The position numbers were made by a program, and so were the translations under genes. A model generated the notes under the pieces. The model ran no database searches. It was not told the DNA's origin and was given only the letters and a program-made list of their open reading frames with translations. Below, piece by piece: positions 3,511-47,950 of a DNA stretch of 64,000 nucleotides. Positions within the stretch are counted from its first letter, which is position 1, and each line of letters opens with the position of its first letter. The stretch is from Myxococcales bacterium (GTDB lineage Bacteria; Myxococcota_A; UBA9042; JABWCM01; BTVJ01). Location of the stretch: positions 32,001 through 96,000 of the forward strand of contig BTVJ01000004.1 in assembly GCA_045863395.1 (NCBI GenBank), in the 5' to 3' direction.

Positions 3511-3513
3511 CCC

Positions 3514-4545: not shown

Positions 4546-4548
4546 GGA

Positions 4549-4577
4549 GGCGCCGGCCCCGGGAGGGGACCGGCGCC
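4549..4577. terminator. GC-rich stem-loop between convergent genes, possibly a bidirectional terminator
   Basis: GGCGCCGG-CCCC / GGGG-A-CCGGCGCC inverted repeat just after the cydB stop; no U-tract. Confidence 0.4.
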
Positions 4578-4611
4578 GTGGAAGCCGGGGGGCGCTGGCC
4601 CACGAGTGAGC

Positions 4612-5646
<1,035 letters not shown>

Positions 5647-5937
5647 CGTTGAACCTGCCTGTGTGTTGGCCGGACACGGCGTGTCCGTGTGTTGTTGGGG
5701 AAACGTGGGTCGCCGAAACGGTAGGTAGACCGGACTTGTTCATTCAACGGAACAACCGTTCCGCGCTTTTGGAACCATGGAGACCTGCGCTCCCTTGGGG
5801 GAGTGGGTGCCTCGCCTGCCGCAAAGGCCGCTCCTCGAACCCGTGTCGTTGCATCCACGGCCTCAACCTCTAAGATGACGGGTCCTCAGGGGCTCGACTG
5901 GCCCTCAGAGACGTCACCGCCGCCGAAGGAGCCCCGC

Positions 5938-7359
5938 ATGCGCATCCCCGAGACTGGAGTCGACAAGGACACCCTGCTCACCAGCCTCGGGGAGCTCCGC
6001 GGCGCCGACCTGGACTGGCGCAGCGGCCGGACCTTCGGCTACATCTACGACGCCGGCCGGGAGGTGGAGGCCGTCGGCAAAGCGGCTTACGCGGCCTTCC
6101 TCACCGAGAACGCCCTCGACCCCACGGCCTTCCCGAGCCTTCTGCGCCTGGAGCGCGAGGTCGTCCGCATGGCGGCCACCCACCTGCGCGGCGGCGACGA
6201 GGTGGTCGGGAACTTCACGAGCGGTGGCACGGAGAGCATCATGCTCGCCGTCAAGACCGCTCGGGAGTGGGCGCGAGCGGCGCGTCCCGGCGTCACCGCG
6301 CCCGAGATCGTCGTCCCGGAGACCGCGCACGCCGCCTTTCACAAGGCCGCGCACTACCTGGGCGTCCGCGTGGTGCCCACGCCGGTGGACCCGGTGACCT
6401 TCCGGGCCGACCCGGACGCCGTGCGCGCCGCCATCACCCAGAGCACCATCCAGCTCGTCGGCTCCGCCGCCAGCTACGCCCACGGCGTCGTCGACCCCAT
6501 CGAGGAGCTGGGGGCAGTCGCCCTGGAGCACGGCCTGCTCTTCCACGTGGACGGCTGCATCGGCGGGTTCCTGCTCCCTTACTTGAGGCGTCTCGGTGCG
6601 CCAGTGCCCCGCTTCGAGCTGGACGTCCCCGGCGTCACCAGCATCTCCATGGACCTGCACAAGTACGCCTACGCACCGAAGGGCGCCTCCATCGTCCTGC
6701 ACCGCGACAAGGCGCTGCGACGACACCAGATCTACTCCTGTGCCCGCTGGAGCGGCTACGGCGTGGTGAATCCGACGGTCCAGAGCACCAAATCCGGCGG
6801 CCCCCTCGCCGCCGCCTGGGCCGTGCTCCACCACGTGGGAGACGACGGCTACCTGGCGCTGGCGCGGCGCCTGCGCGACGCCACGGCGCAGATCCTCGAA
6901 GGGGTGCGCTCCATCCCTGGTCTCCGGGTCCTCGGCGAGCCGCTGATGAGCCTCGTGGCGTTCACGTCGGACACGGCGTCCGTGTTCCACGTCGCCGACG
7001 AGATGAAGGAGCGGGGCTTCTACATCCAGGCGCAGCACCGCTTCGGGTGCAGCCCGGCGAACCTGCACCTGACCATCGGCCCCGAGAACGACCGCCACGT
7101 CCCCGCCATGCTCGACGCGCTGCGGGAGTCGGTCGCGGCCGCGGCGAAGCTGCCCAGCGGCCACATCGGGAAGATGGTGGCCGGCGCCTTGCCCTCCCTG
7201 GACCTGAACGGCGACGGCCTCCAGAAGCTCATGGGGATGCTCGGGGTGGGCGCCGAGCTGCCGAAGCGCATGGCGCCGATCAACGAGGTGCTCGACGCGC
7301 TGCCCCCCGAAGCGCGCGAGGCCATGCTCGCGGCCTTCGTCAACGAGATGTTCGTGTAG
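5938..7359 (+). CDS. PLP-dependent group II decarboxylase family protein, sphingosine-1-phosphate lyase-like
   Basis: FTSGGTESI, AHAAFHKAA, HVDGCIGGF and SISMDLHKYAYAPKGAS (PLP lysine); AAGGAG RBS before ATG 5938. Confidence 0.82.
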   Translation: MRIPETGVDKDTLLTSLGELRGADLDWRSGRTFGYIYDAGREVEAVGKAAYAAFLTENALDPTAFPSLLRLEREVVRMAATHLRGGDEVVGNFTSGGTESIMLAVKTAREWARAARPGVTAPEIVVPETAHAAFHKAAHYLGVRVVPTPVDPVTFRADPDAVRAAITQSTIQLVGSAASYAHGVVDPIEELGAVALEHGLLFHVDGCIGGFLLPYLRRLGAPVPRFELDVPGVTSISMDLHKYAYAPKGASIVLHRDKALRRHQIYSCARWSGYGVVNPTVQSTKSGGPLAAAWAVLHHVGDDGYLALARRLRDATAQILEGVRSIPGLRVLGEPLMSLVAFTSDTASVFHVADEMKERGFYIQAQHRFGCSPANLHLTIGPENDRHVPAMLDALRESVAAAAKLPSGHIGKMVAGALPSLDLNGDGLQKLMGMLGVGAELPKRMAPINEVLDALPPEAREAMLAAFVNEMFV

Positions 7360-7377
7360 CGCGGAGGCGCACGGAAT

Positions 7378-7406
7378 TTGCCCCCGAGACCGCGGGCGCC
7401 TATGCT
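7378..7406 (+). promoter_or_regulatory. Candidate sigma70-type promoter for the PG-binding protein and possibly the lipoprotein array
   Basis: TTGCCC (7378-7383), 17-nt spacer, TATGCT (7401-7406). Confidence 0.45.
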
Positions 7407-7439
7407 TGGTGCGGTCGCACCTCCTGCGGAGGCACCCGG

Positions 7440-7817
7440 ATGGTGAGCAAGGAGCGGCGGGGGAAACAGGCGAAGGGCGCCCCGCCGGGCGCCGATACCC
7501 CCGCGACGTCCTCTCCCCTCCGCGGCCTCTCCTACGCTGGCGCCCGCGAGCGCCTCGCTCCCGCAACCGCAGCCTCCGACCCCGAGGCGGAGGCTTCCTG
7601 GGCGGAGGTGCTCGCAGGCAGCCTGGTGCTGGAGCAGGGCCAGAGCGGCCCGGCCGTCCGCCTCCTGCAGCAGAAGCTCGCCACCACCGGCCACGACATC
7701 CGCCCCTCCGGCGTCTTCGGCCCCACCACCGCCGCGCTGATCGCCGCCTTCCAGGGCGCGCACGGCCTGGAGCCGAGCGGGCGCGTGGACGCCGCGACCG
7801 CCATCGCCCTCGGCTGA
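7440..7817 (+). CDS. Small peptidoglycan-binding domain (PG_binding_1) protein
   Basis: LEQGQSGPAVRLLQQKL...SGVFGPTTAALIAAFQGAHGLEPSGRVDAATAIAL; GGAGG RBS. Confidence 0.8.
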   Translation: MVSKERRGKQAKGAPPGADTPATSSPLRGLSYAGARERLAPATAASDPEAEASWAEVLAGSLVLEQGQSGPAVRLLQQKLATTGHDIRPSGVFGPTTAALIAAFQGAHGLEPSGRVDAATAIALG

Positions 7818-7901
7818 CCCCCAGGCTTCTTGCGTATCGCGCTCGCCCTCTGAGCGTACCTGCGGGTGTGTCCAACCTTTGGTGCCCCGGAGGAGCTCCC
7901 C

Positions 7902-10316
7902 ATGAAGCAGTGGTTCGTGGTGTTCGCGGCTTTCGCCCTGCTCGCAGGCTGTGCTGACGACCCCTCGTGCGGAAACGGATCGGCGGAGGGCGATGAGCAG
8001 TGCGACGACGGCAACGCCGAGGACGGCGATGGCTGCACCAGCGCCTGCACGCTGCCGCGGGTCGGCGACGGCGTCGTCCAGGCAGGCGAGGAGTGCGACG
8101 ACGGCAACGCCATCGACTACGACGGGTGCACCAACGCCGGGCGCCTGCCGCGCTGCGGCGACGGGATCCTTCAAGGGGACGAGGGCTGCGACGACGGCAA
8201 CCTGGACCCCTCCGACGGCTGCACGAACGCGTGCGCGCCGGCCACCTGCGGCGACGGGGTGGTCCGGCTCGGCGTCGAGGAGTGCGATGACGGCAACGCC
8301 GAGGACACCGACGGTTGCACCAGCGCCTGTCGGTTCGCGCAGTGCGGGGACGGCTTCGTGCAGCCCGGGGAGGAGTGCGATGACGGCAACGCGAGCAACA
8401 CGGACGCCTGCCTCCTCACGTGCGTGGCCGCGCGCTGCGGCGACGCCTTCGTCCAGGCCGGTGAGGAGTGCGACGATGGCAACGGCAGCGATGACGACGC
8501 CTGCCTGCCCACCTGCAAGGCGGCGCGCTGCGGCGACGGCGCCGTCCGGGCTGGAGTCGAGGCCTGTGACCCCGGCGCCGACACCACCGGGAAGGTCTGC
8601 ACCACCGGCTGCGCCCTGCCCTCCTGCGGCGACGGCGTCGTCCAGGACGGCGAGGCCTGCGACGACGCAAACCTGAGCGACGCCGACGGCTGCCTGAGCA
8701 CCTGCGTGGCGGCCTCCTGCGGCGACGGCCACGCACAGCCCGGCGAGGAGTGCGACGACGGCAACGCCGACGACCACGACGCCTGCCTGTCGTGCAAGAA
8801 GGCGAGGTGCGGCGACGGGGTCGTCCGGCACGGCGTCGAGGCGTGCGACGATGGCAACGACGCGGACACCGACGGCTGCACCACCGCGTGCGCGCTGCCG
8901 ACCTGCGGCGACGGCATCACCCAGCCCGGCGAGGAGTGCGACGACGGCAACGTCAGCGACACCGACGTGTGCACGACGGCGTGCCTGCTGGCCCGCTGCG
9001 GTGACGGCTTCGTGCAGGTGGGGGTCGAGGAGTGCGACGACGGAGACGCCGACGACCACGACGCCTGCCTCTCCACCTGCAAGGCGGCCACCTGCGGGGA
9101 CGGCAAGACGCTGCTCGGCGTGGAGGAGTGCGACGACGGCAACGACGACGACACGGACGGCTGCACCACGTCATGCAGGAGCGCCCGGTGCGGCGACGGC
9201 CTCGTCCAGGCGGGCGAGGCCTGCGACGACGGCAACGGGAGCAACGACGACGCGTGCCTGGTGACCTGCGTGGCGGCCTCCTGCGGCGACGGCTTCACCC
9301 AGACGGGCGCCGAGGAGTGCGACGACGGGAACGACGACGACCACGACGCGTGCCTGGCGTGCACGAAGGCGACCTGCGGCGACGGCGTCGTGCGGGTCAG
9401 CGTCGAGGCGTGCGACGACGGCAACGACGACGACACGGACGCCTGCACGACGTCCTGCGCGCTGGCGACCTGCGGCGACGGCATCGTCCAGGGCGGCGAG
9501 GAGTGCGACGACGGCAACCTGGACGACGGGGACTCCTGCCTGAGCACGTGCGTCGGAGCCCGGTGCGGGGACGGCTTCGTGCTGGTTGGGGTCGAGGAGT
9601 GCGACGACGGAAACACCAACGACAACGACGCGTGTCCGTCCACCTGCGAGGCGGCGCGCTGCGGCGATGGCTTCGTGCGGCTCGGCGTCGAGGGCTGCGA
9701 CGACGGCAACGACGACGACACGGACGCCTGCCTCTCGACGTGCAAGGCGGCCTCGTGCGGGGACAGCCACGTGCAGGCGGGGATCGAGGCCTGCGACGAC
9801 GGCAACGGCAACAACGCGGACGGCTGCCTGAGCTCGTGCGCCCTGGCGAGCTGCGGCGACGGCTTCACCCAGGTGGGGGTGGAGACCTGCGACGACGGGA
9901 ACCTGGCCGGCGGGGACTGGTGCAGCGCGGACTGCCAGCGCGAGTGCCTGGTCGGCGACGACAACGCGTTGATCGGAGACACCTGCTGGTCGCGCTTCGA
10001 CACGCCGGCGGTCTGGGCCGACGCCCGCGCCTTCTGCGAGGTCCTGGGCGCCCACCTGGCGACGGTGGCCGGCGCCTCCGACAACCAGGCAGTCGCGGAC
10101 CTGGCCGGCGCCGCCTGGATCGGCCTGACGGACCAGCTCACCCCGGGGACCTGGCTCTGGGTGGAGGGGCCGGCCAAGCTCACCGTGCCCATCTATGAGA
10201 GCTGGGCGCCCGGTCAGCCGGGCTCGGGGCACTGCGCATCGACGTCCACGGACGGGCTCTGGACGTCCCACGCCTGCTCCGAGGGGCGCCCCTTCGTCTG
10301 CGAGCGGAGCTTCTAG
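7902..10316 (+). CDS. Lipoprotein with ~21 Myxococcus Cys-rich (DUF4215-type) repeats and a C-terminal C-type lectin domain
   Basis: Lipobox LLAGC; repeats CGDGx5-6EECDDGNx4D[AG]CxxxC; CTL motifs [27 protein letters not shown] and PFVCE. Confidence 0.9.
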
Positions 10317-10318
10317 CG

Positions 10319-13300
10319 GTGTGCCACCGAGCCCCCGCCCGCCGGCGTCACTGTGACCGGACGCGGCTCCTGTGGGCGCTCGCGGCCCTGCTCCTCGGGG
10401 CCTGCGGAGACGACCCGGTCTGCGGCAACGGGGCCGTCGAGGCCGGCGAGCAGTGCGACGAGCCGGGCGAGGGCTGCGTGGCCTGCCGGCTCGCCCGCTG
10501 CGGGGACGGCGTCCAGCAGCCGGGCGAGGAGTGCGACGACGGCAACCCCGTGGACCACGACGGCTGCCGCAACGACTGCCGGCTTCCCCGGTGCGGAGAC
10601 GGCGTGCTCCAAGGTGACGAGGAGTGCGACGACGGCAACACCGACCCGACGGACGCATGCACGGCCACTTGCACCGTCGCGCGGTGCGGCGACGGTGTCG
10701 TTCGGGCGGGCCTGGAGGAGTGCGACGACGACTCGGACGCCTGCGTCGCGTGCGCGGCGGCCCGCTGCGGCGACGGCGTGCGGCAGGGCGCCGAGGAGTG
10801 CGACGACGGCAACGCGAGCCCGTGGGACGCATGCACGCCGGACTGTGTGGCGGCGCGCTGCGGCGACGGCTTCGTGCAGCCCGGTGAGGAGTGCGACGAC
10901 GGCAACGGCGACGAAACGGACGGCTGCCGCTCCTGCCAGCGCGCGCGGTGCGGCGACGGCGCGGTCCACGCAGGGGTGGAGGCGTGCGACGGGGGCGACC
11001 GCTGCGGCCCCTCCTGTGCGCTCCTGACCTGCGGCGACGGCGTGGTGGACCCGGGCGAGGAGTGCGACGACGGAGACGCGGATCCCACGGACGCCTGCCT
11101 GCCGACCTGCCTGCTCGCCCGCTGCGGCGATGGCTACAGGGGTCCCGGTGAGGAGTGCGACGACGGCAACGCAGATGACCGCGACGCCTGCACCGGCTGC
11201 GCGGTGGCCCGCTGCGGCGACGGCGTCGTGGGGCCGGGCGAGGCGTGCGACGCGCCCGCCGGCTGCACCTCCGCCTGTGCCCTCCCCACGTGCGGCGACG
11301 GGATCGTGCAGGGCGGCGAGGAGTGCGACGACGGCAACGGGAGCCCCCACGACGCGTGCCTGCCCACGTGCCTGCTCGCGCGGTGCGGCGACGGCTTCGT
11401 CCAGCCCGGCGAGGAGTGCGACGACGGCAACGGCGCCCCCCACGACGCCTGCACACCGGCGTGCACCAAGGCCCGGTGCGGGGACGGCTGGGTGCGCGCC
11501 GGCGTCGAGGCCTGCGACCCGGGCGGGGACGACGACACCTGCACGGGCTGTGCGCTGCCCACCTGCGGCGACGGTGTCACGCAGGGCGCAGAGCAGTGCG
11601 ACGACGGCAACGCCGACCCGACGGACGGCTGCCTCCCCACCTGCGTGCTCCCGTCCTGCGGCGACGGCTTCGTGCAGGCCGAGGAGTGCGACGACGGCAA
11701 TGCAGACGACCACGATGCGTGCGTGGCCTGCGTGAAGGCGCGCTGCGGCGACGGCATCGTCTTCGCGGGGGTCGAGGCGTGCGACGACGGCAACGACGAG
11801 GACGGCGACGGGTGCTCGGCGTGCGTGCCGACCGGGTGCGGTGATGGGCTCGTACAACCCGACGAGGCGTGCGACGACGGGGACCTGGACCCCACCGACG
11901 GCTGCCTGCCGACCTGCGTCCTGGCGCGCTGCGGCGACGGCTTCACCTGGGCCGGCGTCGAGGCCTGCGACGACGGCAACGCCGACTCCATGGACGGCTG
12001 CACCACGGACTGCGCCCTGCCCTCCTGCGGCGACGGCGTCACCCAGGAAGGAGAGGCCTGCGACGACGGCAACGGGAGCAACACGGACGCCTGCACGGCG
12101 GTCTGCCTCCTGCCGGCGTGCGGGGACGGCTTCGTGCAGGCCGGAGAGGAGTGCGACGACGGCAACGCCAACCCGGCGGACGCCTGCGTGGGCTGCAAGA
12201 AGGCGCGGTGCGGAGATGGCCACCTGCAGGTCGGCGTCGAGGGGTGCGACGACGGCAACGACAGCGACGAGGACGGCTGCGTAGGCTGCGCGCTTGCGCA
12301 CTGCGGAGACGGCCACACATGGAGCGGCGTCGAAGCCTGCGACGACGGCAACCTGGAGCCCACGGACGGCTGCCTGCCGAGCTGCGCTGCCTTCGACTTC
12401 TGCGAGGGGACGGCGGTGACCGCCGTCCTCCCGCCCGTGATCTGCGCCGGGCATGAGCCCCCCGAGGCCGTCCTGAGCGCGTCGGGGCGCGGCTTCCTGC
12501 GCGTCGGGGGCGTCGGCCCCGCCGTCACGCTCGACGGCGCCGCCGCGCCCTTCACGCTCGAGGGGTGCGCCCCGATCCACGGCGTGTTCGTGGCCGCCGA
12601 GGGGTGCACGACGCTCCGGCTGACGCTCCCGGGCACCCTCCCGGTGGGGGACCACCCCATCGAGGTCACGCACCCCACCGCCGCGCCGTGCCCGCTGGCG
12701 GCGGTCCTCAGCGTCGGCGAGCCGCCGATCGTAAGCGCGGTGGAGCCACCCCGGGTGTGCGAGGGCCCCGGGATCGTGGCCGTCCTGGGCTCCGGCTTCG
12801 TGGCGGGCTCCCAGGTGGCGGTCGAGGCACACGCGTCCACGTCCGACACCCTCTCGCCCTCGGAGCTCCTGGTGTCGCTCGGAGCGCTCACTCCCGGCAC
12901 CTGGGACGTGACCGTGAGCAACGGCCCCGACTGCGAGGACACGCTGCCCGGCGCCCTGGAGGTGCTCCCGAACCCCATCGTGTTCTTCGTGGACCCGCCC
13001 GTGGTCTACAACGGCATCGACCTTCAGGCCACCATCTACGTGAGCGGTATCAACGACGGGGCGGTGAGCGCCGTGCAGATCCGCCCGACGGGCACCACGC
13101 AGCCCTGGCTGCCCCTGGACTTCGCGCCCGGCGGGGCGCTGACCGTGCGGGCGACCATCCCGGCGGATCTGGTCCCGCCCGGCGAGAGCCAGACGTGGGA
13201 CGTGCTGGTCACGGACGCCGCTGGCTGCAAGGGGACGCTGGCGGGGAGCCTGGTGCTCACGCAGCGCCTGACGCTGGAGCTCGCCAGCGTGACGCCGCCC

Positions 13301-15235
13301 TTCGGGTGGACCGCGAGCCCGACCGCGGTCTCCGTGCGCGCGGTGACGCCCCCGGCGCCAGGCAACGCCGCCTTCGTGCCCCTGCCGCGGGTGTACCTGA
13401 ACCCGGTGAGCGGCGGCGAGGCGACACCCATCCAGGCCGTGGCCCTCGTGGACGCCGGCCGCCTGACGGCGTTGGTGCCCGACGGCCTGACGCCCGGGGA
13501 CTACGACCTCATCGCCGTCAACCCCACCGGGGAGGTCGGCGTCCTGGAGGGGGGCTTCCGCGTGACGGCCGCGCCACCACCCCTGGTGGACGTGGTGGCG
13601 CCAGGCTCCATCCCCACCGGCTCGCCTGCCTCGATTCGGGTGCGCGGATCGTTCTTCTCTGCCCCCGCTGTGACGGCGACCTGCCTGGAGCCCGGTGGAG
13701 TCCTCGCAGGGTACGCCGCAACGTTGGCCACGGTGTCGCCCACGCTCATCGAGGCGACCCTGCCCGGCGCCCAGATGACCCAGGGGTCCGTGTGCGTGAT
13801 CCGTGTGACCAACGGCGACGGGAGCTTCGCCGACTGGTCCGCCGTCGCCGTGACCAACCCGGCCGAGAACATCGGAGACTCGGTGGCGGGGCCGCCGATG
13901 AGTACGGCCCGCCGCGCCCCGGGGCTGGTCATCGGGCGCGCGACCCGCGCGTCCGCCTTCGTGTACGCCATCGGGGGCGACGGTGGGAGCGAGGCCCTCG
14001 CCACCATCGAAGCCGCGCCGCTCGACGAGTTCGGCGTCCTCGGCGCGTTCTCGACGCTCGACCCGCTGCCAGCCCCGAGGACGCTGGCGGGCGCCGCCAC
14101 CGTGGGGCGCTTCCTCTACGTGGTCGGTGGAGACGAAGGGGGCGGCGCAGTGGCCTCGGTGCTGCGCGCCGAGGTGCTGCGGCCCGAGGACGCGCCGCGC
14201 GTGACGGACGTAGCCATCGCCTTGTCGCCGGACGGCCTCGGGCCGGGCCTCTGGTACTACCGCGTGGCGGCCGTCATGGGGGCCGGCGACGCGGACAACC
14301 CGGGCGGCGAGACCCTGCCGTCGGATCCGCTGCCCATCCAGGTGCCCCCCGGCCTGCCGCTGACGCTGCGCCCGACGCTCACGTGGAGCGCCGTCCCTGG
14401 CGCCGCGAGCTACCGGGTCTACCGCAGCGCCGCTCCCGGTGCCTCGGCCAGCGCGCTGGGGCTCCTGGCCGAGACGGGGAGCACGGGCCTGACGGATCCT
14501 GGCGGCCCGACGACCCCCGCCACCATGCGAGCCGTGGGAGACCTCGGGGTCTGGCACTCCGCGCCCTCGCTCCAGACGGCGCGGTCCTCCCACGGGGTCG
14601 CCGTCGCCCGCGACCCGGCCGACGCAGCGACGCTCCACATCTACGCGGTGGGCGGGCTCGGGCCGTCCGGGGCGCTGGCATCGGTCGAGCGCCTGACTGT
14701 AACCATGGACGCGGACGGCGGGCAGACGATGGGCGCATGGGTCCCCAGCCCGTCCCTGACTGCGGCCCGCTCCGCCCTGGCCGCGGCGACCGTGGACGAG
14801 TCGGCCACGGTGCGCGTTACGGAAGAAGAATCATGGATTTACGCGGGAAGTGGCGAGGACGGGGGGGTGGTCTCCACCCTGGAGTCGGCGCAGGTGCTCC
14901 CCGGGGGCGCGCTCACCTCGTGGTCCTCGGCGCTCAAGGGCGGCTCCGGTCCCAAGCGAACCGGTTACGCGCTGATGGCCGCATCCAATCAGGTCTTCCT
15001 CTTCGGCGGGGCGGGCGGGGCCCCTTCCGGTAACAGCGAGTCGGGGCAGCTCTGCGGACCGGGCTACTCCAAGTGCACCGAGTCCGGTACGCTGAGCAAC
15101 CTGAACGCGACGGGCGCATCCATGGCCGTCGCGCGCCGCCTGTTCGGCTCCACGCTGGGGAGCGGGCGGTTCTTCTTCGCTGGCGGCCAGACTCCGGGAG
15201 GGGTGACCGCCGCGGTCGAGAGCACGATCTGGTAG
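10319..15235 (+). CDS. Lipoprotein with ~22 DUF4215-type Cys repeats, several IPT/TIG-like domains and a Kelch beta-propeller with an FN3-like insertion; start uncertain
   Basis: Lipobox LLLGAC; CGDG..ECDDGN repeats; IPT-like segments ([31 protein letters not shown]); Kelch blades (FVYAIGG, FLYVVGG, IYAVGG, VFLFGG, FFFAGG). Confidence 0.87.
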
Positions 15236-15261
15236 TTCAGGTCCACCCCGAGGTCACCATG

Positions 15262-22236
<6,975 letters not shown>

Positions 22237-35041: not shown

Positions 35042-35193
35042 GCCGCTCCCCTCTTGGTCCCCCTGGCGCCGTCACCCACCTTCTCTCGCAACGCCCTCTC
35101 CCGAAGGCCGAGTCGCGCCGGCCGCGGCGGTTCGCGGCGATGTCCCTTGTAAGTCGGAGGCGGCAGTGATACCAGCCGCCGAGGAGGTGCGCC

Positions 35194-36825
35194 ATGAGGT
35201 GGTTGGTGGCTCTGTTCCTGGTAGGGTGCGCAGGTTCCGTGGAGAAGGGGGCGCCCGCGCTGCCTGCGCTTGGGGCCAAGCAGGACGGCCCGGCGGTCCC
35301 CGTGCTCGGCACGCTGGCCTGGGGAGAGGCGATGAGCGGGACCCTCACGCCGGGGGAGTTCCAGGGGTGGCTCCTCCCGGCGCTCGCTGGCGACCTCGTG
35401 ACGGTGGAGGTGACACAGAAGGGGTCGAGCGCCGGCCTGGACGCGACCCTGTTCGTCTATGCTCCGGACGGCGGGGGCTTCGCGTCGGACCCCGCCGCCA
35501 TGGACGACGACTCCGGGTGGGGTCGCCTGCCCCGCCTGACCCACACCTTCAGCGTCGGAGGCTCGTACCTCGTGGTGGTCGGCGCCTTCGACAAAGTGGG
35601 CAAAGGCGCCTACCGCCTGCTCGCCACCTGCACCGGCGTCTGCGAGGTGGCGAGCTGCGACCCCCGCCTTCTCGCCGGCATGAAGGCGTGTGTCCAGGAT
35701 TGGCGCTACGGCGCGGATCCGGACGCGCAGCGCCCACCGACCACCGGGGAGCTGGTGGAGGGCTGCACCGACGCCGAGCCAGTGGCCCCGGTGCGTGACG
35801 CCATCTGCGCCGAGGACGACTCGCCCTTCTGCGCTCTGGACTACGAGCAGTTCGTCTACCAGGCCATCCCGCCGTGCCGCGCGCCCCTCGAGACGTGGGT
35901 GGAGGAGACGGCCTGCGCCCTCGGCTATACGTGGCAGCCCATCGCCCAGGGGGCGGCCTGGGGCATCCTGGAGCTCGGCCGCACCACGGTGACGACGGCC
36001 GAGGGGCTCAGCGATGTCGAGGCGGAGCGCATCGTGGCGGCGCTCCACGCCTCCGCCCACACGGACGTCACGACCGCCGCGGAGGCCATTCTGCGCACCG
36101 ACGACAAGGCCCTGCTGCGCCTCTCGCTCTGGGACGTCACCAACGGCAGAGCCTATGACGCCTGGACCTTCCACGCAGGTGACAACCTCTTCGGGGCCGT
36201 CTTCGGCGATGGGAGTGGGGGTCCGGTGGCCCACATCAACGACGGAGACATCGTGGAGTGTCAGGTGACACCGGGGCCGGTGCTTCACCCCTGCGCGACG
36301 GACGGAGACTGCGGCGGCCTCACCTGCATCGGCGCCAGCCCGCAGACCTTCGACGGCCGCTGTGTCCCGCCGGGAGCGGCAGGCGCAGAGACGTGCTCGG
36401 CGGAGGCGCAGTGTGCGGCGGGCTTCGTGTGCAACGGTGGAGAGGCGGGCACCTGCGCCCCCGCCTGGACCCGCGCCACCTTCCGCGACGTGGCGTGGGC
36501 GCCCATCCCGGAGGGCGTCGGCGCCCCGCTGGAGCGAACAATCCAGGCGTCGGGCCTGCTCCCGGAGGCGACGGACGCCCGCCTGCGGATCACCGTGGCC
36601 CACCCGGCGCCATCACAGCTCCGCGTGCTGCTCTTGACGCCGGCGGGAGGCGAGCACGTGGTCTACGAGGGCACGCAGCAGGGCCCGGACCTGACGCTGG
36701 ACCTGGCGGTCCCCGTTGACGGCGGCACCCCGGCCAACGGGACGTGGACCCTCCGCGTCACCGACACGCTCAAGGGGAAGGCGGGGACGCTCACCGAGTG
36801 GTCGCTGGGGTTGGGGAGCCGCTGA
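35194..36825 (+). CDS. Lipoprotein with a PPC-like domain, Cys-rich modules and a C-terminal proprotein-convertase P domain
   Basis: Lipobox LVGC; LDATLFVYAPDG..DDDSG..GSYLVVV; ITVAHPAPSQLRVLLLTPAG..ANGTWTLRVTD..GTLTEWSL. Confidence 0.78.
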   Translation: MRWLVALFLVGCAGSVEKGAPALPALGAKQDGPAVPVLGTLAWGEAMSGTLTPGEFQGWLLPALAGDLVTVEVTQKGSSAGLDATLFVYAPDGGGFASDPAAMDDDSGWGRLPRLTHTFSVGGSYLVVVGAFDKVGKGAYRLLATCTGVCEVASCDPRLLAGMKACVQDWRYGADPDAQRPPTTGELVEGCTDAEPVAPVRDAICAEDDSPFCALDYEQFVYQAIPPCRAPLETWVEETACALGYTWQPIAQGAAWGILELGRTTVTTAEGLSDVEAERIVAALHASAHTDVTTAAEAILRTDDKALLRLSLWDVTNGRAYDAWTFHAGDNLFGAVFGDGSGGPVAHINDGDIVECQVTPGPVLHPCATDGDCGGLTCIGASPQTFDGRCVPPGAAGAETCSAEAQCAAGFVCNGGEAGTCAPAWTRATFRDVAWAPIPEGVGAPLERTIQASGLLPEATDARLRITVAHPAPSQLRVLLLTPAGGEHVVYEGTQQGPDLTLDLAVPVDGGTPANGTWTLRVTDTLKGKAGTLTEWSLGLGSR

Positions 36826-37090
36826 GGCGCACCGCGGCCCTGTCGCGACGGGCGTCGTGAACGGTGTACACCGCACTGCGCCAGATCCCCTGAGACCCGC
36901 TCGGTCAGAACGCCTCCACTCGCCAGCACAGGTACGCGAGGAGCGCATCGCTCACGAAGCCGATCACTTCATGCCAGAGGAAAGTCTTGCTCGGATTGTG
37001 CTTGCGGTCTCGCACCCCCGTGAGCTACCCTCGTCCAGTCCGTGACCCGGAGAGGTCGACTCGGCATACTCTCGAGGGGAGTTTGTCGCG

Positions 37091-37339
37091 ATGGGAATTC
37101 GACGATGCAGCTTCTGCAAGAAGCCCCGCGGCGCAGAGCTCGCCAAGATCTGCACATCCTGCGCCCAGGGCCGCACAGCAGACTCCTGGTGTGACTTCTG
37201 TAACAAGACGACCAACGGCGCGCCGGCCTGGATATGCTCCACGTGTGCCAAGGGACGCACCGGCGACAACTGGTGCGACTTCTGCAACAAGACCACGAAT
37301 ACGGTCGTTGCTCGTATTTGCGCTCGCTGCGCCGCATGA
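37091..37339 (+). CDS. 82-aa triple zinc-finger microprotein (6 x CxxC, 28-aa internal repeat)
   Basis: CSFC-11-CTSC-9-CDFC-11-CSTC-9-CDFC-11-CARC; GAGGGG RBS; repeat copies differ mostly at synonymous sites. Confidence 0.8.
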   Translation: MGIRRCSFCKKPRGAELAKICTSCAQGRTADSWCDFCNKTTNGAPAWICSTCAKGRTGDNWCDFCNKTTNTVVARICARCAA

Positions 37340-37365
37340 CCGCGAGTCGAGAGAGGAGATGATCG

Positions 37366-40299
37366 ATGTTGTCTGTCGACCAGCTTCGGCGACTGGAGTC
37401 CACCCGGGCCCTCCTGCCCAATTCGCTCGCAACCAGCCTGACCGGCGCACTCCTCGAGCGGGATCCTCGCTCGAAACTACGTGAAATTCTGCGGTTCTGC
37501 GAGTCATTGGCACGCTACCTGTGCGACCTGCTCAACTCGGCGTACACGATGCGCAAGGACACGGACCCGTCCATCGAAAGGGAGCTGCGCGCCAAGTCGA
37601 AGAAGGAGAAGACAGCGGGTCTGTCCTTCGGGGACCTCGTTGCATCACTGGCGGTGTTCAGAGGACGAATGACGGAGGAGATGGCGCTTCCTCAGATCAA
37701 GGTGATCCTCTCGGAACAGCTTCCTGGCGAGTGTCTCACGGCCATCAGGACCATCGAGATCATCATGGAAGCGACGGGCGATTTCGAGGTCCCCCCACAC
37801 AAGGTAGCCGCCTATGTCAAGAGACGGCTGGCCGAACGTGGGGCCGTCGGAAAGAAGAACATCACGGACCTCCTGTGGATGCTCGCAAGAGTCCGCAATG
37901 CCTTTCACCACCCGTCGGACGCGGGGGCCCGCGCTGCGGACTCGAGAGTCGACGCTCGTCAGGAGGCCGAGGCGCCCTCACCGGCGACCGGGAAACAGTG
38001 GTGGTCGGAGGCCATTGAGTTCTACGTCGCGCTAGTGGAGACGCTGCACCCGGCACTCGTGGATCTGCTCCTCTGGTCGCCCCTCGTCGCGCTGGTAGAG
38101 CAGTACGAGCTCGTCGAGACCTTGTCGCCATCCGTGTCGGTGGACGACGGGTTTCTCTCGACCGTAAGACGTAACAGCCCAAGTGCCGAGCTGCTGCTCG
38201 TGCCAAGCCAGATCCGAACGGACTCGCCGTTGGAATCCGGACAGCTCTGCGTCGCTGCTCGGACGGCCGATCCATCTCGACTCGAGCTTTGTGTCCGCGG
38301 ACTTCGGTATCCTGCGAGCCGGCTGGCGCGCACGGAACACCTCGCCATGTATCGCAAGGCATTCGTACGAGCGATCCTGGGCGACGCGGTCGTCGATGCC
38401 GCCGATGAGTCAGCACTGGAGGAGATTCGGGCTCAGGGCGACCTCACAGACGGTGAGGTAGCGGAGTGTCGTTCATCGGTTCTCCAACGCTGGCTCGCAG
38501 CATGTCCGACCTCGGAGCCGATCCAGAGCCTGGGCACAGACATCACACCGAGACCGAGCGACGCTCTGGAGCATTGGCTCTCAAGGGATACACCGGCAAA
38601 GTCCGAGAGTCCGGCAGCCCCTGGTGACGTAGTTGCGCAGGCAGCATCTCTCATGGGCCACGTCTGTGGTCTGGTATTGCGGTCCCTTCAGGACAACGGC
38701 GCCATGGGGCTCGAGGCTCTCGTTCGGAGCACGTCTGTCGAGGCCCTCGCGTTGGCCCGTGCTCTGCAGTGGCTCGTGGACCGTAAGCGGGTGACGAGCG
38801 CAGGCAGCACGCAACAGGGAAATGCGGCACGCACATACCAGCTCTTGGACCAGGCACACATCGACACATTCCGGTCCGTCCTCGTCGAGGTTGGACACGA
38901 GATTGACTCAGGGAAGGTGATCAGCGGCCAGGTCTGGCGTCTCATCAAGTTGACGGACTCACTCCTGAGAGATCTCGGACACACCGAGGATTTCGCCGAG
39001 CGATGGCGAGAGCTGGAGGAGCGCGCACTGTCTCAAACGGATCTGGAGGTTTCTGACACTACCGATGTAGACGAAGAGGCTGATCGCCTGGACCTCATGA
39101 TCGAGGGTACCGACGTCAGCGCAAAGCGCTTGACACATCTGGTGCGGCGGGCTTGGGAGCTCGTGTGCAACGACGACAGGATGGTAAGACAGGTGACATC
39201 CCCAGGCAGCGCCATACCGTTCAAGGTCGGTCGCAGCCGCTATTTCGCTCACAGTGCACCAGAGCACTCCAACGGCACCGCGTTTGCTTTGCCCGTCGAG
39301 TGTCTCTGCGGCGACACGGCGGTCTACTTCGAGTGCAACTGGAGTCGTCGCGAAGGTGTCTTCCACCTCATCGGATTTCTGGGGAGGTGCGGATTCCGCG
39401 CCGAGTCCGCCTCCGTTGGAGAGCAGGTCGTGCAGGTTGAACAGGCCGCGCCGGAGCCAGGCGACGAGTCCACGCGGTCACGGCCCGGCGGTGTGCAGCA
39501 AGCCCTTGGCGACGGCGATGGTCGGGGAGTTGCGATTCTGCTGACGGACGGTGAGGAGCTCGATATTCGCGGCCGCAACGTTCCGCGCTTTCTGGGCTCG
39601 CTTCTGCGCTGGCTCGTGGACAATGATCTGATTCATGAGCAGGTGCATGGTGAGCCACTGCTTCCGTTTCAAAGCGGCAGAGTGCGAAACTTCGTCGCGC
39701 TTGCGCCGTTTCACCAGGACGAGACGCCATTCCAACGCCCGGTGGAGTACCAGGGACTCTACATGGAGGCGTCTCAATCATGGGAATCGGCGCTGGAGTA
39801 CTCGAAGCGCCTGCTCGACAGACTCAGGCTCGACTGTCGTGTCCTGGTGGATGATTCGCGACTGCCGCTCATGGTCCGTGTGCGCGATGGCGCGCCCATC
39901 GAAGGGGAGAACGTTCGCGATTTGTTCGTTGCGGCATGCCAGTATCTGGTCGAGTCCCAGAATGCATCCCGAGTACCCGTTCCACTTGCGAGCGGCACGA
40001 AGCGGTACATCATGTCCGAAACTCCGGTTCATCCAGCCGGCAACGCATTCAGCAGTCCGGTCCAGATTGATCTCAACGGGCGTCTCGTATACTGCGAAGC
40101 CAACGTAAGCAGAGCGAGCGCGCTGTCCTATGTCGTCAAGCTTTTGGAGTCCACTGGCACCATCATCGTCGATGCCCAGGGCCACAATGCGCTACAGGAA
40201 GCACTGGGCGCTGCGTCCTCGGGCGAGGGGCCCGACGTCCATAGCAGTGCATTGGACAGTCTGGGAGACGCAATCAGCGAGGCTGGAGCGACTCTCTGA
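37366..40299 (+). CDS. 977-aa multidomain hypothetical protein: HEPN-like N-terminus, TerB-like and wHTH-like segments, three C-terminal SeqA-C-like repeats (candidate defence effector)
   Basis: GAGGAG RBS; RNAFHH (RxxxxH) at 37894-37911; three ~100-aa repeats at about 39088-40160. The ORF is clear; the domain calls are inference. Confidence 0.72.
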   Translation: MLSVDQLRRLESTRALLPNSLATSLTGALLERDPRSKLREILRFCESLARYLCDLLNSAYTMRKDTDPSIERELRAKSKKEKTAGLSFGDLVASLAVFRGRMTEEMALPQIKVILSEQLPGECLTAIRTIEIIMEATGDFEVPPHKVAAYVKRRLAERGAVGKKNITDLLWMLARVRNAFHHPSDAGARAADSRVDARQEAEAPSPATGKQWWSEAIEFYVALVETLHPALVDLLLWSPLVALVEQYELVETLSPSVSVDDGFLSTVRRNSPSAELLLVPSQIRTDSPLESGQLCVAARTADPSRLELCVRGLRYPASRLARTEHLAMYRKAFVRAILGDAVVDAADESALEEIRAQGDLTDGEVAECRSSVLQRWLAACPTSEPIQSLGTDITPRPSDALEHWLSRDTPAKSESPAAPGDVVAQAASLMGHVCGLVLRSLQDNGAMGLEALVRSTSVEALALARALQWLVDRKRVTSAGSTQQGNAARTYQLLDQAHIDTFRSVLVEVGHEIDSGKVISGQVWRLIKLTDSLLRDLGHTEDFAERWRELEERALSQTDLEVSDTTDVDEEADRLDLMIEGTDVSAKRLTHLVRRAWELVCNDDRMVRQVTSPGSAIPFKVGRSRYFAHSAPEHSNGTAFALPVECLCGDTAVYFECNWSRREGVFHLIGFLGRCGFRAESASVGEQVVQVEQAAPEPGDESTRSRPGGVQQALGDGDGRGVAILLTDGEELDIRGRNVPRFLGSLLRWLVDNDLIHEQVHGEPLLPFQSGRVRNFVALAPFHQDETPFQRPVEYQGLYMEASQSWESALEYSKRLLDRLRLDCRVLVDDSRLPLMVRVRDGAPIEGENVRDLFVAACQYLVESQNASRVPVPLASGTKRYIMSETPVHPAGNAFSSPVQIDLNGRLVYCEANVSRASALSYVVKLLESTGTIIVDAQGHNALQEALGAASSGEGPDVHSSALDSLGDAISEAGATL

Positions 40300-40458
40300 G
40301 GCGAGCGGGCTCGGACCCGTGCGAGGGTCTCTGTGTTGTGACGTCTCGTCAGGCGAGGAGCGCGCAATCGGTGGCGTAGACGCGCTGTGGCGTTGGGTGC
40401 CCCCTGACCCGCCGCGGTCCTCGTGGGCCGGGATCACGACGCCTTGGCATGCCACGGA

Positions 40459-42141
40459 TCAGAGCGTCTCCTCCCGCCCGAACAGCGGCGCCAGGAGCAC
40501 CACGCCGGCGCAGCCGACCACGTTGTACCAGAGGAAGCCGACGTCGCTCAGGAAGAACATCGCCAGCACGAGGGCCTCGGAGAGGACCGCCGCCCAGAAG
40601 ACGCCGGCGGCGCGGACCCGCTTGAGGAAGAAGGCGGCGAGGAAGATGCCGAGGATGGTGCCGTAGAAGAGGGAGCCGAGGATGTTGACGGCCTGGATGA
40701 GGTTGTCGATGAGCGAGGCGAAGGTCGCAAACGCGATGGCGAGGAGCCCCCACCCCACGATGAAGACCTTGGAGACGCGCAGCGTGTGGGCCTCGTCGGC
40801 GTCTGGCCGGAAGGAGCGCTTGTAGAAGTCGATGGCGGTGGTGGTGCCCAGCGCCGACAGCTCGCTCGCCGTCGACGACATGGCCGCCGACAGGATCACC
40901 GCGACCAGCAGCCCCACCACCCCGATGGGGAGGAACTTCATCACGAAGCTCAGGAAGACGTAGTCCGTGTCCTTGGTCTCGGCCCCGGGCACCGCGCGGG
41001 CGATGATCGCCCTCGCCTTGGCGCGCAGCTCCACGTCCTGCGCGGAGAGCTCCCGCATGGACGCCTTCGCCGTCGCCGCCGCCTCCTCGTCACCCGCCCT
41101 GCGCGCGCCGAGCCAGGTGTCCACCGCCGCGCGCTTGACCTGGAAGATGCGCGCGTGGGCGGCCTCCACCTCCGCCAGCTCCGGCCCATGAGAGGTCGCC
41201 GCCGCCTGGGCCCGCGCGGCCTCGTTGAAGAACACCGGCGGCTCCACGAACTGGTAGAACACGAACACCATGACCCCGATGAACAGGATGAGGAACTGCA
41301 TGGGGATCTTGAGCAGCCCGTTGAACAGGAGCCCGAGGCGCGCCTGGGCGATGGAGCGCCCGGACAGGTAGCGCTGCACCTGGCTCTGGTCGGTCCCGAA
41401 GTAGGCGAGCGCGAGGAAGAGCCCCCCTGTGATCCCCGACCAGAAGGTGTAGCGGCTGTCGAGGTCCAGGCTGAAGTCGATGGCGTTCATGCGGCCGAAG
41501 GCCCCCGCCACCTGGACCGCCTCGCCGAAGGAGACGTGCTCCGGCAGGTGGAGCACCACCATGACCAGCGCCGCCACCATGCCGCCGAGCATCACCACCA
41601 TCTGGTGCTTCTGGGTCTGGCTCACCGCCTTGGTGCCGCCGGTCACCGTGTAGACGACGACCACGAGGCCGATGGCCACGTTGGTCACGTCCAGGGGCCA
41701 GCCGAGGATGGTGGAGAGGATGATCGCCGGCGCGTAGATGGTGATTCCCGCGGCCAGGCCTCGTTGAATCAGGAAGAGAAACGCAGCGAGCTGGCGGGTG
41801 CGCTTGTCGAAGCGGCTCTCCAGGAACTCGTAGGCCGTGTAGACCCGCAGCCGGAAGTAGCGGGGCACCACCACCGCGGACAGGATCACCATGGCGATGG
41901 GCAGCCCGAGGTAGAACTGGACGAAGCGCATGCCGTCGTCGTAGCCCTGCCCCGGGGTGGACAGGAAGGTGATGGCGCTCGCCTGGGTCGCCATGACGCT
42001 CAGGCCGACGGTGTACCAGGGCAGCTCGTTGTCGCCGCGCAGGTAGCCCTGCACCGTCGCCACACGGCGCGTCTTCCAGGCCCCGTAGGCGACGATGCCG
42101 AAGACCGTGCCCAGCATCACCGCCCAGTCGAGGGCGCTCAC
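40459..42141 (-). CDS. Sodium:solute symporter (SSS family)
   Basis: GLSVMATQASAITFLSTPGQ, TAYEFLESRF, YFGTDQSQVQRYL and GLLVAVILSAAMSS. Confidence 0.92.
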   Translation of the reverse strand: MSALDWAVMLGTVFGIVAYGAWKTRRVATVQGYLRGDNELPWYTVGLSVMATQASAITFLSTPGQGYDDGMRFVQFYLGLPIAMVILSAVVVPRYFRLRVYTAYEFLESRFDKRTRQLAAFLFLIQRGLAAGITIYAPAIILSTILGWPLDVTNVAIGLVVVVYTVTGGTKAVSQTQKHQMVVMLGGMVAALVMVVLHLPEHVSFGEAVQVAGAFGRMNAIDFSLDLDSRYTFWSGITGGLFLALAYFGTDQSQVQRYLSGRSIAQARLGLLFNGLLKIPMQFLILFIGVMVFVFYQFVEPPVFFNEAARAQAAATSHGPELAEVEAAHARIFQVKRAAVDTWLGARRAGDEEAAATAKASMRELSAQDVELRAKARAIIARAVPGAETKDTDYVFLSFVMKFLPIGVVGLLVAVILSAAMSSTASELSALGTTTAIDFYKRSFRPDADEAHTLRVSKVFIVGWGLLAIAFATFASLIDNLIQAVNILGSLFYGTILGIFLAAFFLKRVRAAGVFWAAVLSEALVLAMFFLSDVGFLWYNVVGCAGVVLLAPLFGREETL

Positions 42142-45578: not shown

Positions 45579-46448
45579 TCATGGCACGAGCCACGCTTCG
45601 AGCTGCTCCCAGGTCCACCCGGTCCCCTGCACGAACATGGCCCGCGCCATGCCCGCATGGACGAAGCGCTCGTCGCCGAGATCGAAGAGATCCTCCAGGA
45701 TCGGCAGGAGGCGCCCCCGCAGCTCGGGGTCCGCCAGGCCCAGCCCCAGCACCTCGTTGAGCTGTGCCAGCTTGCGCTCCACCCGGGCTGCCTTCTCCAG
45801 GCGGGAGGCCACGACGCTCGGCCGGTCCAGGCCGCAGACGCGAATGGTCTCCGCCCCATGCTCGCTGCCCGCCAGCGGGCGGACCGCGCCGCCTCCAAGA
45901 AACTCGAGGTGCTGCGCCGGATCGTGCCGCCCGAACGGGTCGAGGAGCAGCGGGTCCTCCACGGCCTCGTCGCCGGGTGCCGGCCGGGCGGCGCGCCCAC
46001 CCGCCACCGGGAAGAGGGCATTCTTCCACGACTGGTTGCACAGACCGCACGACACCAGGTAGTTGTCCCAGGAGTAGGCGAGCCACCAGTATCCGCTGTC
46101 CCAGGTCCCGACCTTGGGCGGCTTGCCGAACGACCGCCCCGCCGTGTTGTTGAGGCTCTGACGCTCTCTCCCCGGCTTGAGCAGCGTGAAGATGGCGGTC
46201 TTCGGGCGGTAGTGCTCCACGTCCCCGTGGTCCGTCAGGAGCCGCTCGCAGTAGCCGCACTTGCGGTGCTGCCGCTCGGCGAAGTGCTCCTTGACCCCTT
46301 CCCCCCACGCCGCGTTGGCCTTCAGGAAGTCGGCCACGCCCTTCCAGTCCCCGACGGTCCCCAGCGCCTCCGCCGCCTCCCGCAGCGTCTTCACCCGCAG
46401 CTCGAAGTCCGCCCTCCCCCCGGTGGGTCGCGCGCTGAACCGCAGCAT
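45579..46448 (-). CDS. HNH endonuclease, Septu PtuB / retron-effector type
   Basis: KCGYCE, DVEHYRPK, GYWWLAYSWDNYLVSCGLCN..KNALFP and PLLLDP. Confidence 0.85.
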   Translation of the reverse strand: MLRFSARPTGGRADFELRVKTLREAAEALGTVGDWKGVADFLKANAAWGEGVKEHFAERQHRKCGYCERLLTDHGDVEHYRPKTAIFTLLKPGRERQSLNNTAGRSFGKPPKVGTWDSGYWWLAYSWDNYLVSCGLCNQSWKNALFPVAGGRAARPAPGDEAVEDPLLLDPFGRHDPAQHLEFLGGGAVRPLAGSEHGAETIRVCGLDRPSVVASRLEKAARVERKLAQLNEVLGLGLADPELRGRLLPILEDLFDLGDERFVHAGMARAMFVQGTGWTWEQLEAWLVP

Positions 46449-46450
46449 GG

Positions 46451-47734
46451 TCAGGGCTCTCCGAGCAGGGAGCGCATGCGCCGCTTCAGGTCCGCACGGT
46501 CCTCCTTGGCGAGGGGCAGCTCGCTGCTGGTCTCCGCCACGAGGCGCAGGGCCAGCCTCTCCTCCGCCGTGTCACCGAAGCTCCCCAGGCGCTGGCGCAG
46601 CTCGACCTCCACGTCCCGGAGCTCAGCGCGGGTCGCGCCGCCCGCGGCCGCCTTCTGGTACTCCTCCAGACGGCGCACGGTGTCGGCGTCGAGCGTCGAC
46701 GCGAGGCCGAACCAGGGTCCGGTCAGGACCGCGTCGGCCCGGGAGCCAGGCGGAACGTCCTGCTGGCGCGCATGGATGCCGTCCGACTCCCGCGTCAGCA
46801 CATGGATCTCCCGAGGGCGCGCCCCGAGCAGGGTGAGCGGGTTGTGGGTGGTCACGACGAAGGAGAGACACGGAAAGGCCGCGCGCAGATCCTCGATGAC
46901 GCGGACCTGCCACCGGGGGTGCAGATGGAGGTCCAGCTCGTCCACCAGGACGAGCCCGGTCATCTGCTCGCGGAAGTCCCGGTCCAGGTTCACGGCCGAC
47001 TGAGTGGCTTGCGTCCTGGAGCGTGACGGCCCCCGCCTCGCGTGGGCCCAGCGCGCGATGAGGTCGCAGGTCCACCCGATGGTGGTGGCAAAGCCGTCGC
47101 TGAGGCCGTCGAACGTGGTGCGCCCGACGGCCGGCCCCTCGACGTACACGGCGTCCGACTCGGGCTCGATGCGGTCCACCCCCGGCAGGAGTCCGACCAG
47201 GGTGGCGCACACCGACTCGAAGAAGCCCTCGTCCCCCCCGCCCTTGCTTCGCAGGGCACCAAACGCGAGGTTCCGGAGCCATGTCTCGGCGTGAATCAGC
47301 CCCGGCGGCTGGTTGAACAGAGTCCCCACGGCCCCGAGAGGGTGCTCCAGGTCCACGCTGCGGCTCGGCCCCCCGAGGGCGCTCCCCCGTGCGGCCCCGT
47401 AGGCGAAGACGAGGGGAGTGAAGCCGAAGGTGCGGGTGGCGGCGCCCAACTCCAGCTCCAGATCGCCGGCCGAGGTCTGAAGTGCGACCCTCCCCGGTGG
47501 AGCCCCGAGCCGCTGGAGCCGCCCCTCCGGGTAGCGCGTCAGGTCGCTGAGCGGACTCAGCGCCACGGCCAGCGCCTTCAGGATGGTCGACTTGCCCACC
47601 CCGTTGTCGCCGAGCAGCACCGTCCACTGCCCCCGGCTCCGGGGCCGGGAGGCAAAGCGCAGGTCGAGCTGGTCGAAGCAGCGGACATTGTCGAGGTGCA
47701 GGTGCTTGAGAACCACGGGCGGTGATGCTTCCAT
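46451..47734 (-). CDS. ABC/AAA_21-type ATPase, Septu PtuA-like
   Basis: LHLDNVRCF, Walker A GDNGVGKS, LSDG, Walker B VLVDELDLHLHPRWQ and VTTHNP; TATACT -10 (47743-47748) 8 nt before ATG 47734. Confidence 0.87.
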   Translation of the reverse strand: MEASPPVVLKHLHLDNVRCFDQLDLRFASRPRSRGQWTVLLGDNGVGKSTILKALAVALSPLSDLTRYPEGRLQRLGAPPGRVALQTSAGDLELELGAATRTFGFTPLVFAYGAARGSALGGPSRSVDLEHPLGAVGTLFNQPPGLIHAETWLRNLAFGALRSKGGGDEGFFESVCATLVGLLPGVDRIEPESDAVYVEGPAVGRTTFDGLSDGFATTIGWTCDLIARWAHARRGPSRSRTQATQSAVNLDRDFREQMTGLVLVDELDLHLHPRWQVRVIEDLRAAFPCLSFVVTTHNPLTLLGARPREIHVLTRESDGIHARQQDVPPGSRADAVLTGPWFGLASTLDADTVRRLEEYQKAAAGGATRAELRDVEVELRQRLGSFGDTAEERLALRLVAETSSELPLAKEDRADLKRRMRSLLGEP

Positions 47735-47950
47735 GGAGCGGCAGTATAGCGGGCTTGGCGGCACGGGTCACCCGCGCACGGGGACCTCACTCCGTGGGGA
47801 CAGCGGGCCGTGGAGGTCGGCTCCTCGGTCGCCGTGGAGACCTGGCCACGCCCGATGGGTTCCGAGGCCACCGGGCGAAGCCCCCCGCCCCCGGAATGCC
47901 ACCCACCGGGTACCTGTTTGCGCTGCCACGACCCACGGAGGTTCCCCAAA

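Follow-up and report, generated by a model that had tools for sequence, protein, structure and literature searches.

In a 64,000-nucleotide (nt) window of a Myxococcales genome (GenBank assembly GCA_045863395.1, contig BTVJ01000004.1, positions 32,001 to 96,000 of the forward strand), two adjacent genes on an islet of low GC content encode a zinc-finger microprotein, P0002, and a large multidomain protein, P0001. The latter joins a predicted HEPN RNase domain to three predicted DNA-reading SeqA-like domains and stands outside any named HEPN family or PADLOC system. As an initial annotation of this DNA had stated, the two genes lie on the plus strand 26 nt apart and each has a ribosome-binding site (GGGGAG, 9 nt upstream of the ATG, for the first gene and GAGGAG, 7 nt upstream, for the second). 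Their features, in window coordinates and in amino acids (aa) of the respective protein, are as follows.

37091..37339, plus strand: P0002, zinc-finger microprotein of 82 aa with 12 Cys in six CxxC pairs, a three-fold repeat (spacing 12/10/12/10/12)
37366..40299, plus strand: P0001, 977 aa, consisting of HEPN-like, beta, half-TerB, winged helix-turn-helix (wHTH) and helical parts and three SeqA-like repeats
37366..38106, plus strand: all-helical HEPN-like domain of P0001, aa 1–247, helical in the model, with E46 and a conserved insert at aa 100–160
37771..37824, plus strand: predicted homodimer interface, aa 136–153, with the family motif R-x2-F-x-I-P-P-x5-Y
37894..37911, plus strand: R177-N178-A-F-H-H182, predicted HEPN RNase active-site motif, aa 177–182
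38104..38301, plus strand: beta-rich domain, aa 247–312, six strands in the model
38329..38502, plus strand: half-TerB-like helical hairpin, aa 322–379
38647..38850, plus strand: wHTH, aa 428–495
39085..39405, plus strand: SeqA-like repeat 1, aa 574–680 (E 2e-28 with a hidden Markov model (HMM) of the repeat)
39532..39840, plus strand: SeqA-like repeat 2, aa 723–825 (repeat HMM, E 6e-28)
39865..40158, plus strand: SeqA-like repeat 3, aa 834–931

P0001 is a member of a real, rare and unnamed protein family. A full HMMER search with aa 1–570 returned 42 homologues, 30 of which are at least 850 aa long, and a full gene of this type occurs in four of 401 genomes of the phylum, in one of 107 in the class, and in 3/154 and 4/201 in two other orders. 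Ten independent loci carry the HEPN gene (the window, L029, L030, L031, L043/L044, L052, L055, L057, L058 and L059, with L052 and L055 being 3-kb contigs). In word-indexed searches P0001 matched only itself, with nothing for the repeats; sequence searches against PDB yielded neither HEPN nor SeqA matches, plasmids gave no match to P0001, and in the Atlas the full-length protein had no feature match and aa 1–325 had matches to unnamed clusters below 0.9 only. At E ≤ 1 P0001 has no match among the families of Pfam, PADLOC and NCBIfam, and since PADLOC 2.0 gives 0 families at this threshold for either gene, the pair indeed corresponds to no named system, as had been anticipated. The architecture is not described in the literature retrieved by full-text searches; the supplements of PMC3710099 and PMC4738411, which are rich in architectures, could hold it. 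AlphaFold2 models of both halves of P0001 reach a pLDDT of 90, with a pTM of 0.83 for aa 1–560.

A central question is whether the N-terminal domain has the hallmarks of a HEPN RNase. According to those sections of PMC3710099 that define them, such domains feature an Rx4-6H motif that ends helix 3, a polar residue directly after the arginine and an upstream acidic residue, often within Ex3[KR]. P0001 has the Rx4-6H motif with a polar residue, its position at a helix end within an all-helical domain and, with E46, the upstream acidic residue. In the AlphaFold2 model RNAFHH sits where helix 166–181 ends and a loop follows, with a local pLDDT of 96–97. In a 43-sequence alignment R177, N178 and H182 are present in 39/39, 40/40 and 39/39 of the rows with a residue at these positions, the remaining rows being fragments, and R-N-x3-H also occurs in nine of nine homologues from genomes or contigs (two equal library hits). 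E46 is kept in 33 of 39 rows; the complete Ex3[KR] is present in P0001, yet in only 13 of 39 rows overall. The conservation of RxxxxH, on which the initial annotation had beforehand let its proposal stand or fall, is thus clear, with the motif being invariant across the family. The HEPN four-helix fold of aa 1–247 itself is unconfirmed, as the match lists of three fold searches were taken up by the wHTH, and Pfam HEPN families including HEPN_Swt1 (PF18731) match neither P0001 nor its 42 homologues. Membership in the Swt1-type HEPN domains was considered but is unsupported: hhalign against five such domains gave probabilities of 16–33%, mainly over the motif helix, with a profile comparison score of 27, against at most 18 among 40 shuffles.

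Two copies of aa 1–320 are predicted to form a homodimer with an ipSAE of 0.42, which is at the threshold (20 of 30 solved homodimers and one of 23 single chains attain it), versus 0.00 for the best control; the runs agree in at least 94% of contacts at a pLDDT of at least 85. The confident contacts are those of aa 136–153, where P143 is found in 35 and R at position 137 in 29 of 40 rows. They lie away from the catalytic face. The complex prediction therefore supports dimerization, but not a canonical active-site dimer.

The C-terminal part of P0001 contains three SeqA-like repeats, just as first annotated. The top fold match of the repeat is the C-terminal domain of SeqA (PDB 3fmt, 3sk7, 1iu3) at an identity of 9–14%; unlike SeqA, however, P0001 has three tandem copies, and Pfam SeqA matches neither P0001 nor its homologues, nor does Pfam RAMA. 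The repeats share a conserved reader motif, G-R-x-R..H..E, and the repeat, which Pfam misses, recurs on HsdR-N (type I) and McrB-like restriction proteins; in structure rows of the Atlas the repeats also overlap HsdR-N, TIR and MTaX1 proteins at TM below 0.5, which is a lead only. This is reminiscent of the modified-base readers RAMA, HARE-HTH and ASCH, whose fusions to restriction enzymes are described in the relevant sections of PMC4738411, except that the output of P0001 would be of RNase rather than DNase type. The observed/expected ratio of GATC in the genome is 0.935, which is uninformative for binding of hemimethylated GATC. Separately, six further proteins with one or two SeqA-like repeats (in L019, L020, L021, L022, L023 and L025) have zero Pfam matches.

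Between these two ends, a beta-rich domain that had gone unrecorded before and is not reached by fold searches is followed by the half-TerB hairpin and the wHTH. In a comparison with 14 TerB domains, the former gave an hhalign probability of 82% (E 1e-5) over 27 columns only, with a score of 28.7, compared with at most 13.6 in 60 column shuffles. Of the TerB-like stretch proposed initially, a half-repeat is therefore supported, but not the complete TerB domain of two repeats and about 118 aa, and PF05099 has no match in this genome at E ≤ 1e-5. The wHTH-like segment was recovered at aa 428–495 by fold search and resembles MarR, ArsR and Z-alpha types. Taken together, the original domain reading stands with respect to the invariant RxxxxH, the wHTH, the half-TerB and the SeqA-like repeats, with the HEPN fold itself a prediction. 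It could be argued that a wHTH of these types next to three SeqA-like domains belongs to a DNA-binding regulator or chromosome-organizing protein, with the helical N-terminus serving dimerization only; a predicted interface that avoids the R-N-x3-H motif and an unconfirmed HEPN fold would be in line with such a non-RNase function. By contrast, R, N and H being invariant in a divergent family points to catalysis, and a patchy, mobile occurrence together with restriction-type repeat fusions is unlike a housekeeping regulator, so that we give this explanation very little credence.

On balance we lean towards P0001 being a self-contained one-chain sensor–effector of abortive anti-phage defence, which combines a predicted RNase with DNA sensing. 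From the observed genes with their foreign islet, family, invariant R-N-x3-H, architecture and neighbourhoods, and from the predicted folds and dimer, we infer DNA sensing and RNA cleavage along the following lines. The SeqA-fold repeats and the wHTH would bind abnormal DNA, probably DNA that is unusually methylated, such as modified phage DNA or host DNA with a disturbed methylation pattern. As there are three readers per chain and the chains would be paired in a dimer, this may constitute a multivalent switch that responds to densely marked DNA only. Multivalent binding could then rearrange the pre-formed dimer, held together by aa 136–153, in such a way that the two R-N-x3-H motifs meet, and the predicted HEPN RNase would cut cellular RNA, with the infected cell arresting and phage growth coming to a stop. 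In this scheme the zinc finger would be a non-obligate companion that likely modulates P0001.

HEPN RNases that back up DNA-targeting defence, as treated in parts of PMC3710099 and PMC12839542, include PrrC, RloC, the HEPN-DUF499 proteins of Type-1 BR systems and giant HEPN-helicase-Vsr-wHTH proteins. As far as these accounts go, P0001 resembles them in its N-terminal Rx4H with an upstream Glu, its DNA-contacting modules, its proposed suicide output and the restriction–modification or BREX neighbours in some loci. It differs in a chain free of ATPase, helicase and DNase parts, in a sensor that consists of three SeqA-fold repeats plus a wHTH, and in lacking a Pfam HEPN match. If our proposal is correct, P0001 would represent a DNA-modification sensor wired to an RNase, not a DNase, in a single chain with a swappable reader cassette, and would expose an unannotated SeqA-fold repeat on type I and McrB-like restriction proteins. 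Three invariant residues predicted to be catalytic, the G-R-x-R..H..E reader motif and natural reader swaps offer direct tests.

Defence context, as initially suggested, is seen in relatives at two loci: one of the HEPN genes resides among genes for a methyltransferase, a HATPase and AbiEii (L058), another among BREX, McrB-like and YhcG genes (L059).

The zinc-finger protein belongs to a tight family, with 11 homologues of 81–83 aa, 12 Cys that are invariant in 13 of 13 rows and gaps of 12–13, 10, 12, 10 and 12 residues between the CxxC pairs; a single query of viral contigs found no relative. The initial annotation had combined both genes into an obligate toxin–antitoxin or defence pair, with the zinc finger binding and inhibiting the HEPN protein. 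Their 26-nt spacing on the same strand and their common foreign composition fit this model, and so does their linkage in three of the ten HEPN loci (the window, L031 and L043, which are independent). This linkage is above chance: among the 401 genomes four have the HEPN gene, four the zinc finger and two both (Fisher p 0.0004, or 0.02 without this genome, with kin not being independent). However, co-occurrence is not obligate. The zinc-finger gene was not found anywhere in seven of nine HEPN-gene genomes, i.e. in 7/7 of the others, which are 82–99% complete, and conversely four genomes have the zinc finger without a full HEPN gene. Moreover, a 2.2–2.3-kb gene separates the two genes in L031 and L043, and among 13 independent zinc-finger loci three have the HEPN gene, whereas four abut a KAP NTPase gene (L035, L037, L038 and L050); of the remaining ones, one faces a Card1-like nuclease gene and five are near contig ends or next to unknown genes. 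Because seven of the nine HEPN genomes have no detectable zinc finger, and the zinc finger is found beside KAP NTPases as often, a dedicated antitoxin is unlikely; the obligate co-occurrence that defines type II toxin–antitoxin pairs is not observed here. The obligate pair as a whole thus appears quite improbable, but of the two roles assigned to the zinc finger, that of a regulator can be kept in the form of a likely non-obligate modulator.

The KAP NTPases adjoining the zinc finger (L035 1096–3854, L037 5854–8246, L038 5809–8246, L050 1060–3402) form a subfamily with 34–56% identity, and stop and start of the two genes overlap three times, which makes them a candidate second system with the same microprotein. 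One of these loci is part of a long same-strand cluster (L062 1545–17000 plus L038 400–8246, G662:C369) with genes for GrpE-like, HSP70, TPR, single SeqA-like repeat, Tiamat TmtA-like, kinase, ClpB-like AAA, vWA, FHA, KAP NTPase and zinc-finger proteins.

The cysteine pattern of P0002 also invites comparison with PHF5A/Rds3, a trefoil-knot zinc finger of the U2 small nuclear ribonucleoprotein (snRNP; relevant sections of PMC5458519 and PMC4506424). In the trefoil knot of PHF5A, 12 Cys are arranged around three Zn: of its five CxxC, 1 pairs with 4 and 2 with 5, and the third pairs with two Cys at the terminus. Rds3 is the sole fold relative reported there (PMC5458519, in the part dealing with the fold). 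Like PHF5A, with gaps of 12, 4, 13, 9 and 11, P0002 has 12 zinc-type Cys, and in four of the five gaps the two differ by no more than one residue (12, 13, 9 and 11 in PHF5A; 12–13, 12, 10 and 12 in the P0002 family); unlike PHF5A, it has six intact CxxC instead of five plus two terminal Cys, and one gap is 10 instead of 4. With PF03660, 12 of the 13 members of the family reach E ≤ 0.05, the best value being 0.0004, but all score below the cut-off; the model ranks the zinc-finger gene first in three of the five genomes that have it. Membership in PHF5A by sequence score was nevertheless rejected, because Cys-rich controls score alike (14.6–16.8 bits for the zinc-finger genes versus 13.3–21.9 bits for unrelated Cys-rich stretches, with a cut-off of 26.7) and because PRDM9 and eL43 are equal or better in PDB. 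As judged from its pattern of cysteines, P0002 looks as an unpermuted three-fold version of PHF5A might be expected to look, which is a lead; full-text literature searches found no description of a bacterial PHF5A. An extended proposal would see here a methylation-reading myxobacterial suicide system, with a HEPN RNase set off by three SeqA-fold readers, and in the zinc finger a perfectly three-fold, unpermuted bacterial relative of PHF5A/Rds3 that serves as a regulator common to several defence effectors (HEPN, KAP NTPase). We regard this combination as speculative and unlikely. If it were true, a core U2 snRNP fold would originate in bacterial conflict and, since PMC5458519 reports no fold relative of PHF5A beyond Rds3, a symmetric bacterial version would bear on the origin of the knotted spliceosomal protein.

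In five of ten HEPN loci (L030, L031, L043, L052 and L057) the neighbour is a gene for a phosphoesterase that we take from its motifs to be DHH-like, with no Pfam DHH match, and that is mostly fused to a CorA-like end with a weak match (E 1e-5 to 1e-3). This raises the possibility of a three-gene module composed of the HEPN-SeqA sensor, a DHH-CorA phosphoesterase/membrane protein and the zinc finger. The window islet would then be a reduced form that relies on a DHH-CorA gene at another place in the genome, and nucleotide products would connect the RNase with a membrane pore. Indeed, all three genes are clustered in L031 and L043, in differing orders; this genome has a DHH-CorA gene on contig C32 next to a NYN gene; and in genome G206 the neighbour of DHH-CorA encodes an NTPase joined to a distant HEPN-like domain. 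Of the 401 genomes, 11 have DHH-CorA, including three of the four HEPN genomes versus eight of 397 others (Fisher p 6e-5; 0.002 if this genome is left out; the profile was built from these very loci). CorA, a DHH nuclease and NYN also occur together in type III-B CRISPR loci, as described in part of 10.1101/270033, which is matched by the DHH-like/CorA-like neighbour in relatives and then by NYN in this genome; in contrast to what is described there, no cas genes were seen in the loci of HEPN relatives and DHH-CorA is absent from the window islet. Yet a DHH-CorA gene was not found in the HEPN genomes G173, G600, G585 and G629 (in a single-protein query with no positive control), eight of the 11 DHH genomes are missing a full HEPN gene, and a nucleotide synthase is seen in no locus. 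Considering also the weak CorA match and a DHH label derived from motifs, we think of this module as rather unlikely, and P0001 as a one-chain sensor–effector remains our preferred reading.

Some observations concern the DHH-CorA genes in their own right. The one in this genome lies in a conflict-type cluster with host-like GC (L051, G000:C32:56000–75999, 1440–15779), where DHH-like/CorA-like overlaps NYN and is accompanied by genes for a double-AAA M41 protease, a Ser/Thr kinase, PP2C, a PspA-like and a double-GTPase-like protein; the 20 kb of L051 showed no cas gene. In the DHH-like proteins (L051 9745–11955, L043 5686–7917, L057 7603–9936, L031 7013–9316), which are fused to CorA-like, kinase or TPR parts, D-x-H precedes H-x2-PDxD. 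Canonical DHH enzymes show the reverse motif order, and these proteins are possibly a permuted subfamily. Divergent from a DHH-CorA gene, a minus-strand gene (L096 40–2865) encodes a protein that joins a Zn ribbon and a P-loop NTPase to a domain distantly related to the HEPN-like one (E 9e-6, with R-N-x3-H). The N-terminal HEPN-like domain may be widespread on NTPases.

The two genes reside on an islet whose setting between convergent host genes had been recognized before, and whose boundaries are now defined by a repeat of 78 nt that had not.

36905..40458, no strand: low-GC inserted islet of about 3.55 kb, from GC profile and list of open reading frames
35194–36825, plus strand: gene with proprotein-convertase P domain, left flank, converging on the islet
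42141–40459, minus strand: sodium:solute symporter gene (PF00474, E 2e-41), right flank, converging on the islet
40459–40536, minus strand: intact 3' end of the host symporter gene, right copy of the bracketing repeat
36905..36982, minus strand: decayed 78-nt copy of the symporter 3' end including the stop codon, left boundary of the islet

The foreign composition claimed for the islet is evident from its GC content of 62.0% versus 70.9% genome-wide, with only three of 2575 3.3-kb tiles being equally low, and from a GC content at third codon positions (GC3) of 0.71–0.75 in its genes versus 0.90–0.98 in six measured host genes. GC drops from 0.73 to 0.59 near 36900 and is back up past 40300. 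The two repeat copies, 36905–36982 and 40459–40536, are 72% identical over 78 nt without gaps, and the drop in GC starts there. The symporter 3' end is the top non-self blastn match of that intergenic stretch genome-wide (E 2.8e-4), and the repeat scores 69, whereas none of 1500 random tiles scores above 50. By sequence comparison, 36905–36982 is likely a displaced copy of the insertion site. The islet likely entered long ago by insertion at the symporter 3' end; no integrase or transposase gene is listed within 36905..40458 at present. No empty site was found in 30 related genomes, where none matched islet DNA so that an empty site could not be aligned, nor did eight runs contain an islet-skipping joint.

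There is no sigma-70 promoter match at the islet, and terminator matches are at chance level (4 versus 2.0 ± 1.4). Contigs from RNA libraries (four runs, two studies) partly cover both genes, with one spanning 37046–37798; as the flanks are covered too and DNA in such libraries is not excludable, we do not claim expression or co-transcription. In a second strain, known from contigs at low depth only, 24 differences to the window are found in 1.9 kb around the upstream host gene (35083–36980) and one in 1.3 kb of the HEPN gene (37501–38782). Finally, a Septu system is encoded on the minus strand at 45579–47764, 5 kb off the islet, with PtuA (E 9e-57) and PtuB (E 1e-45) having a host-like GC3 of 0.90–0.92.

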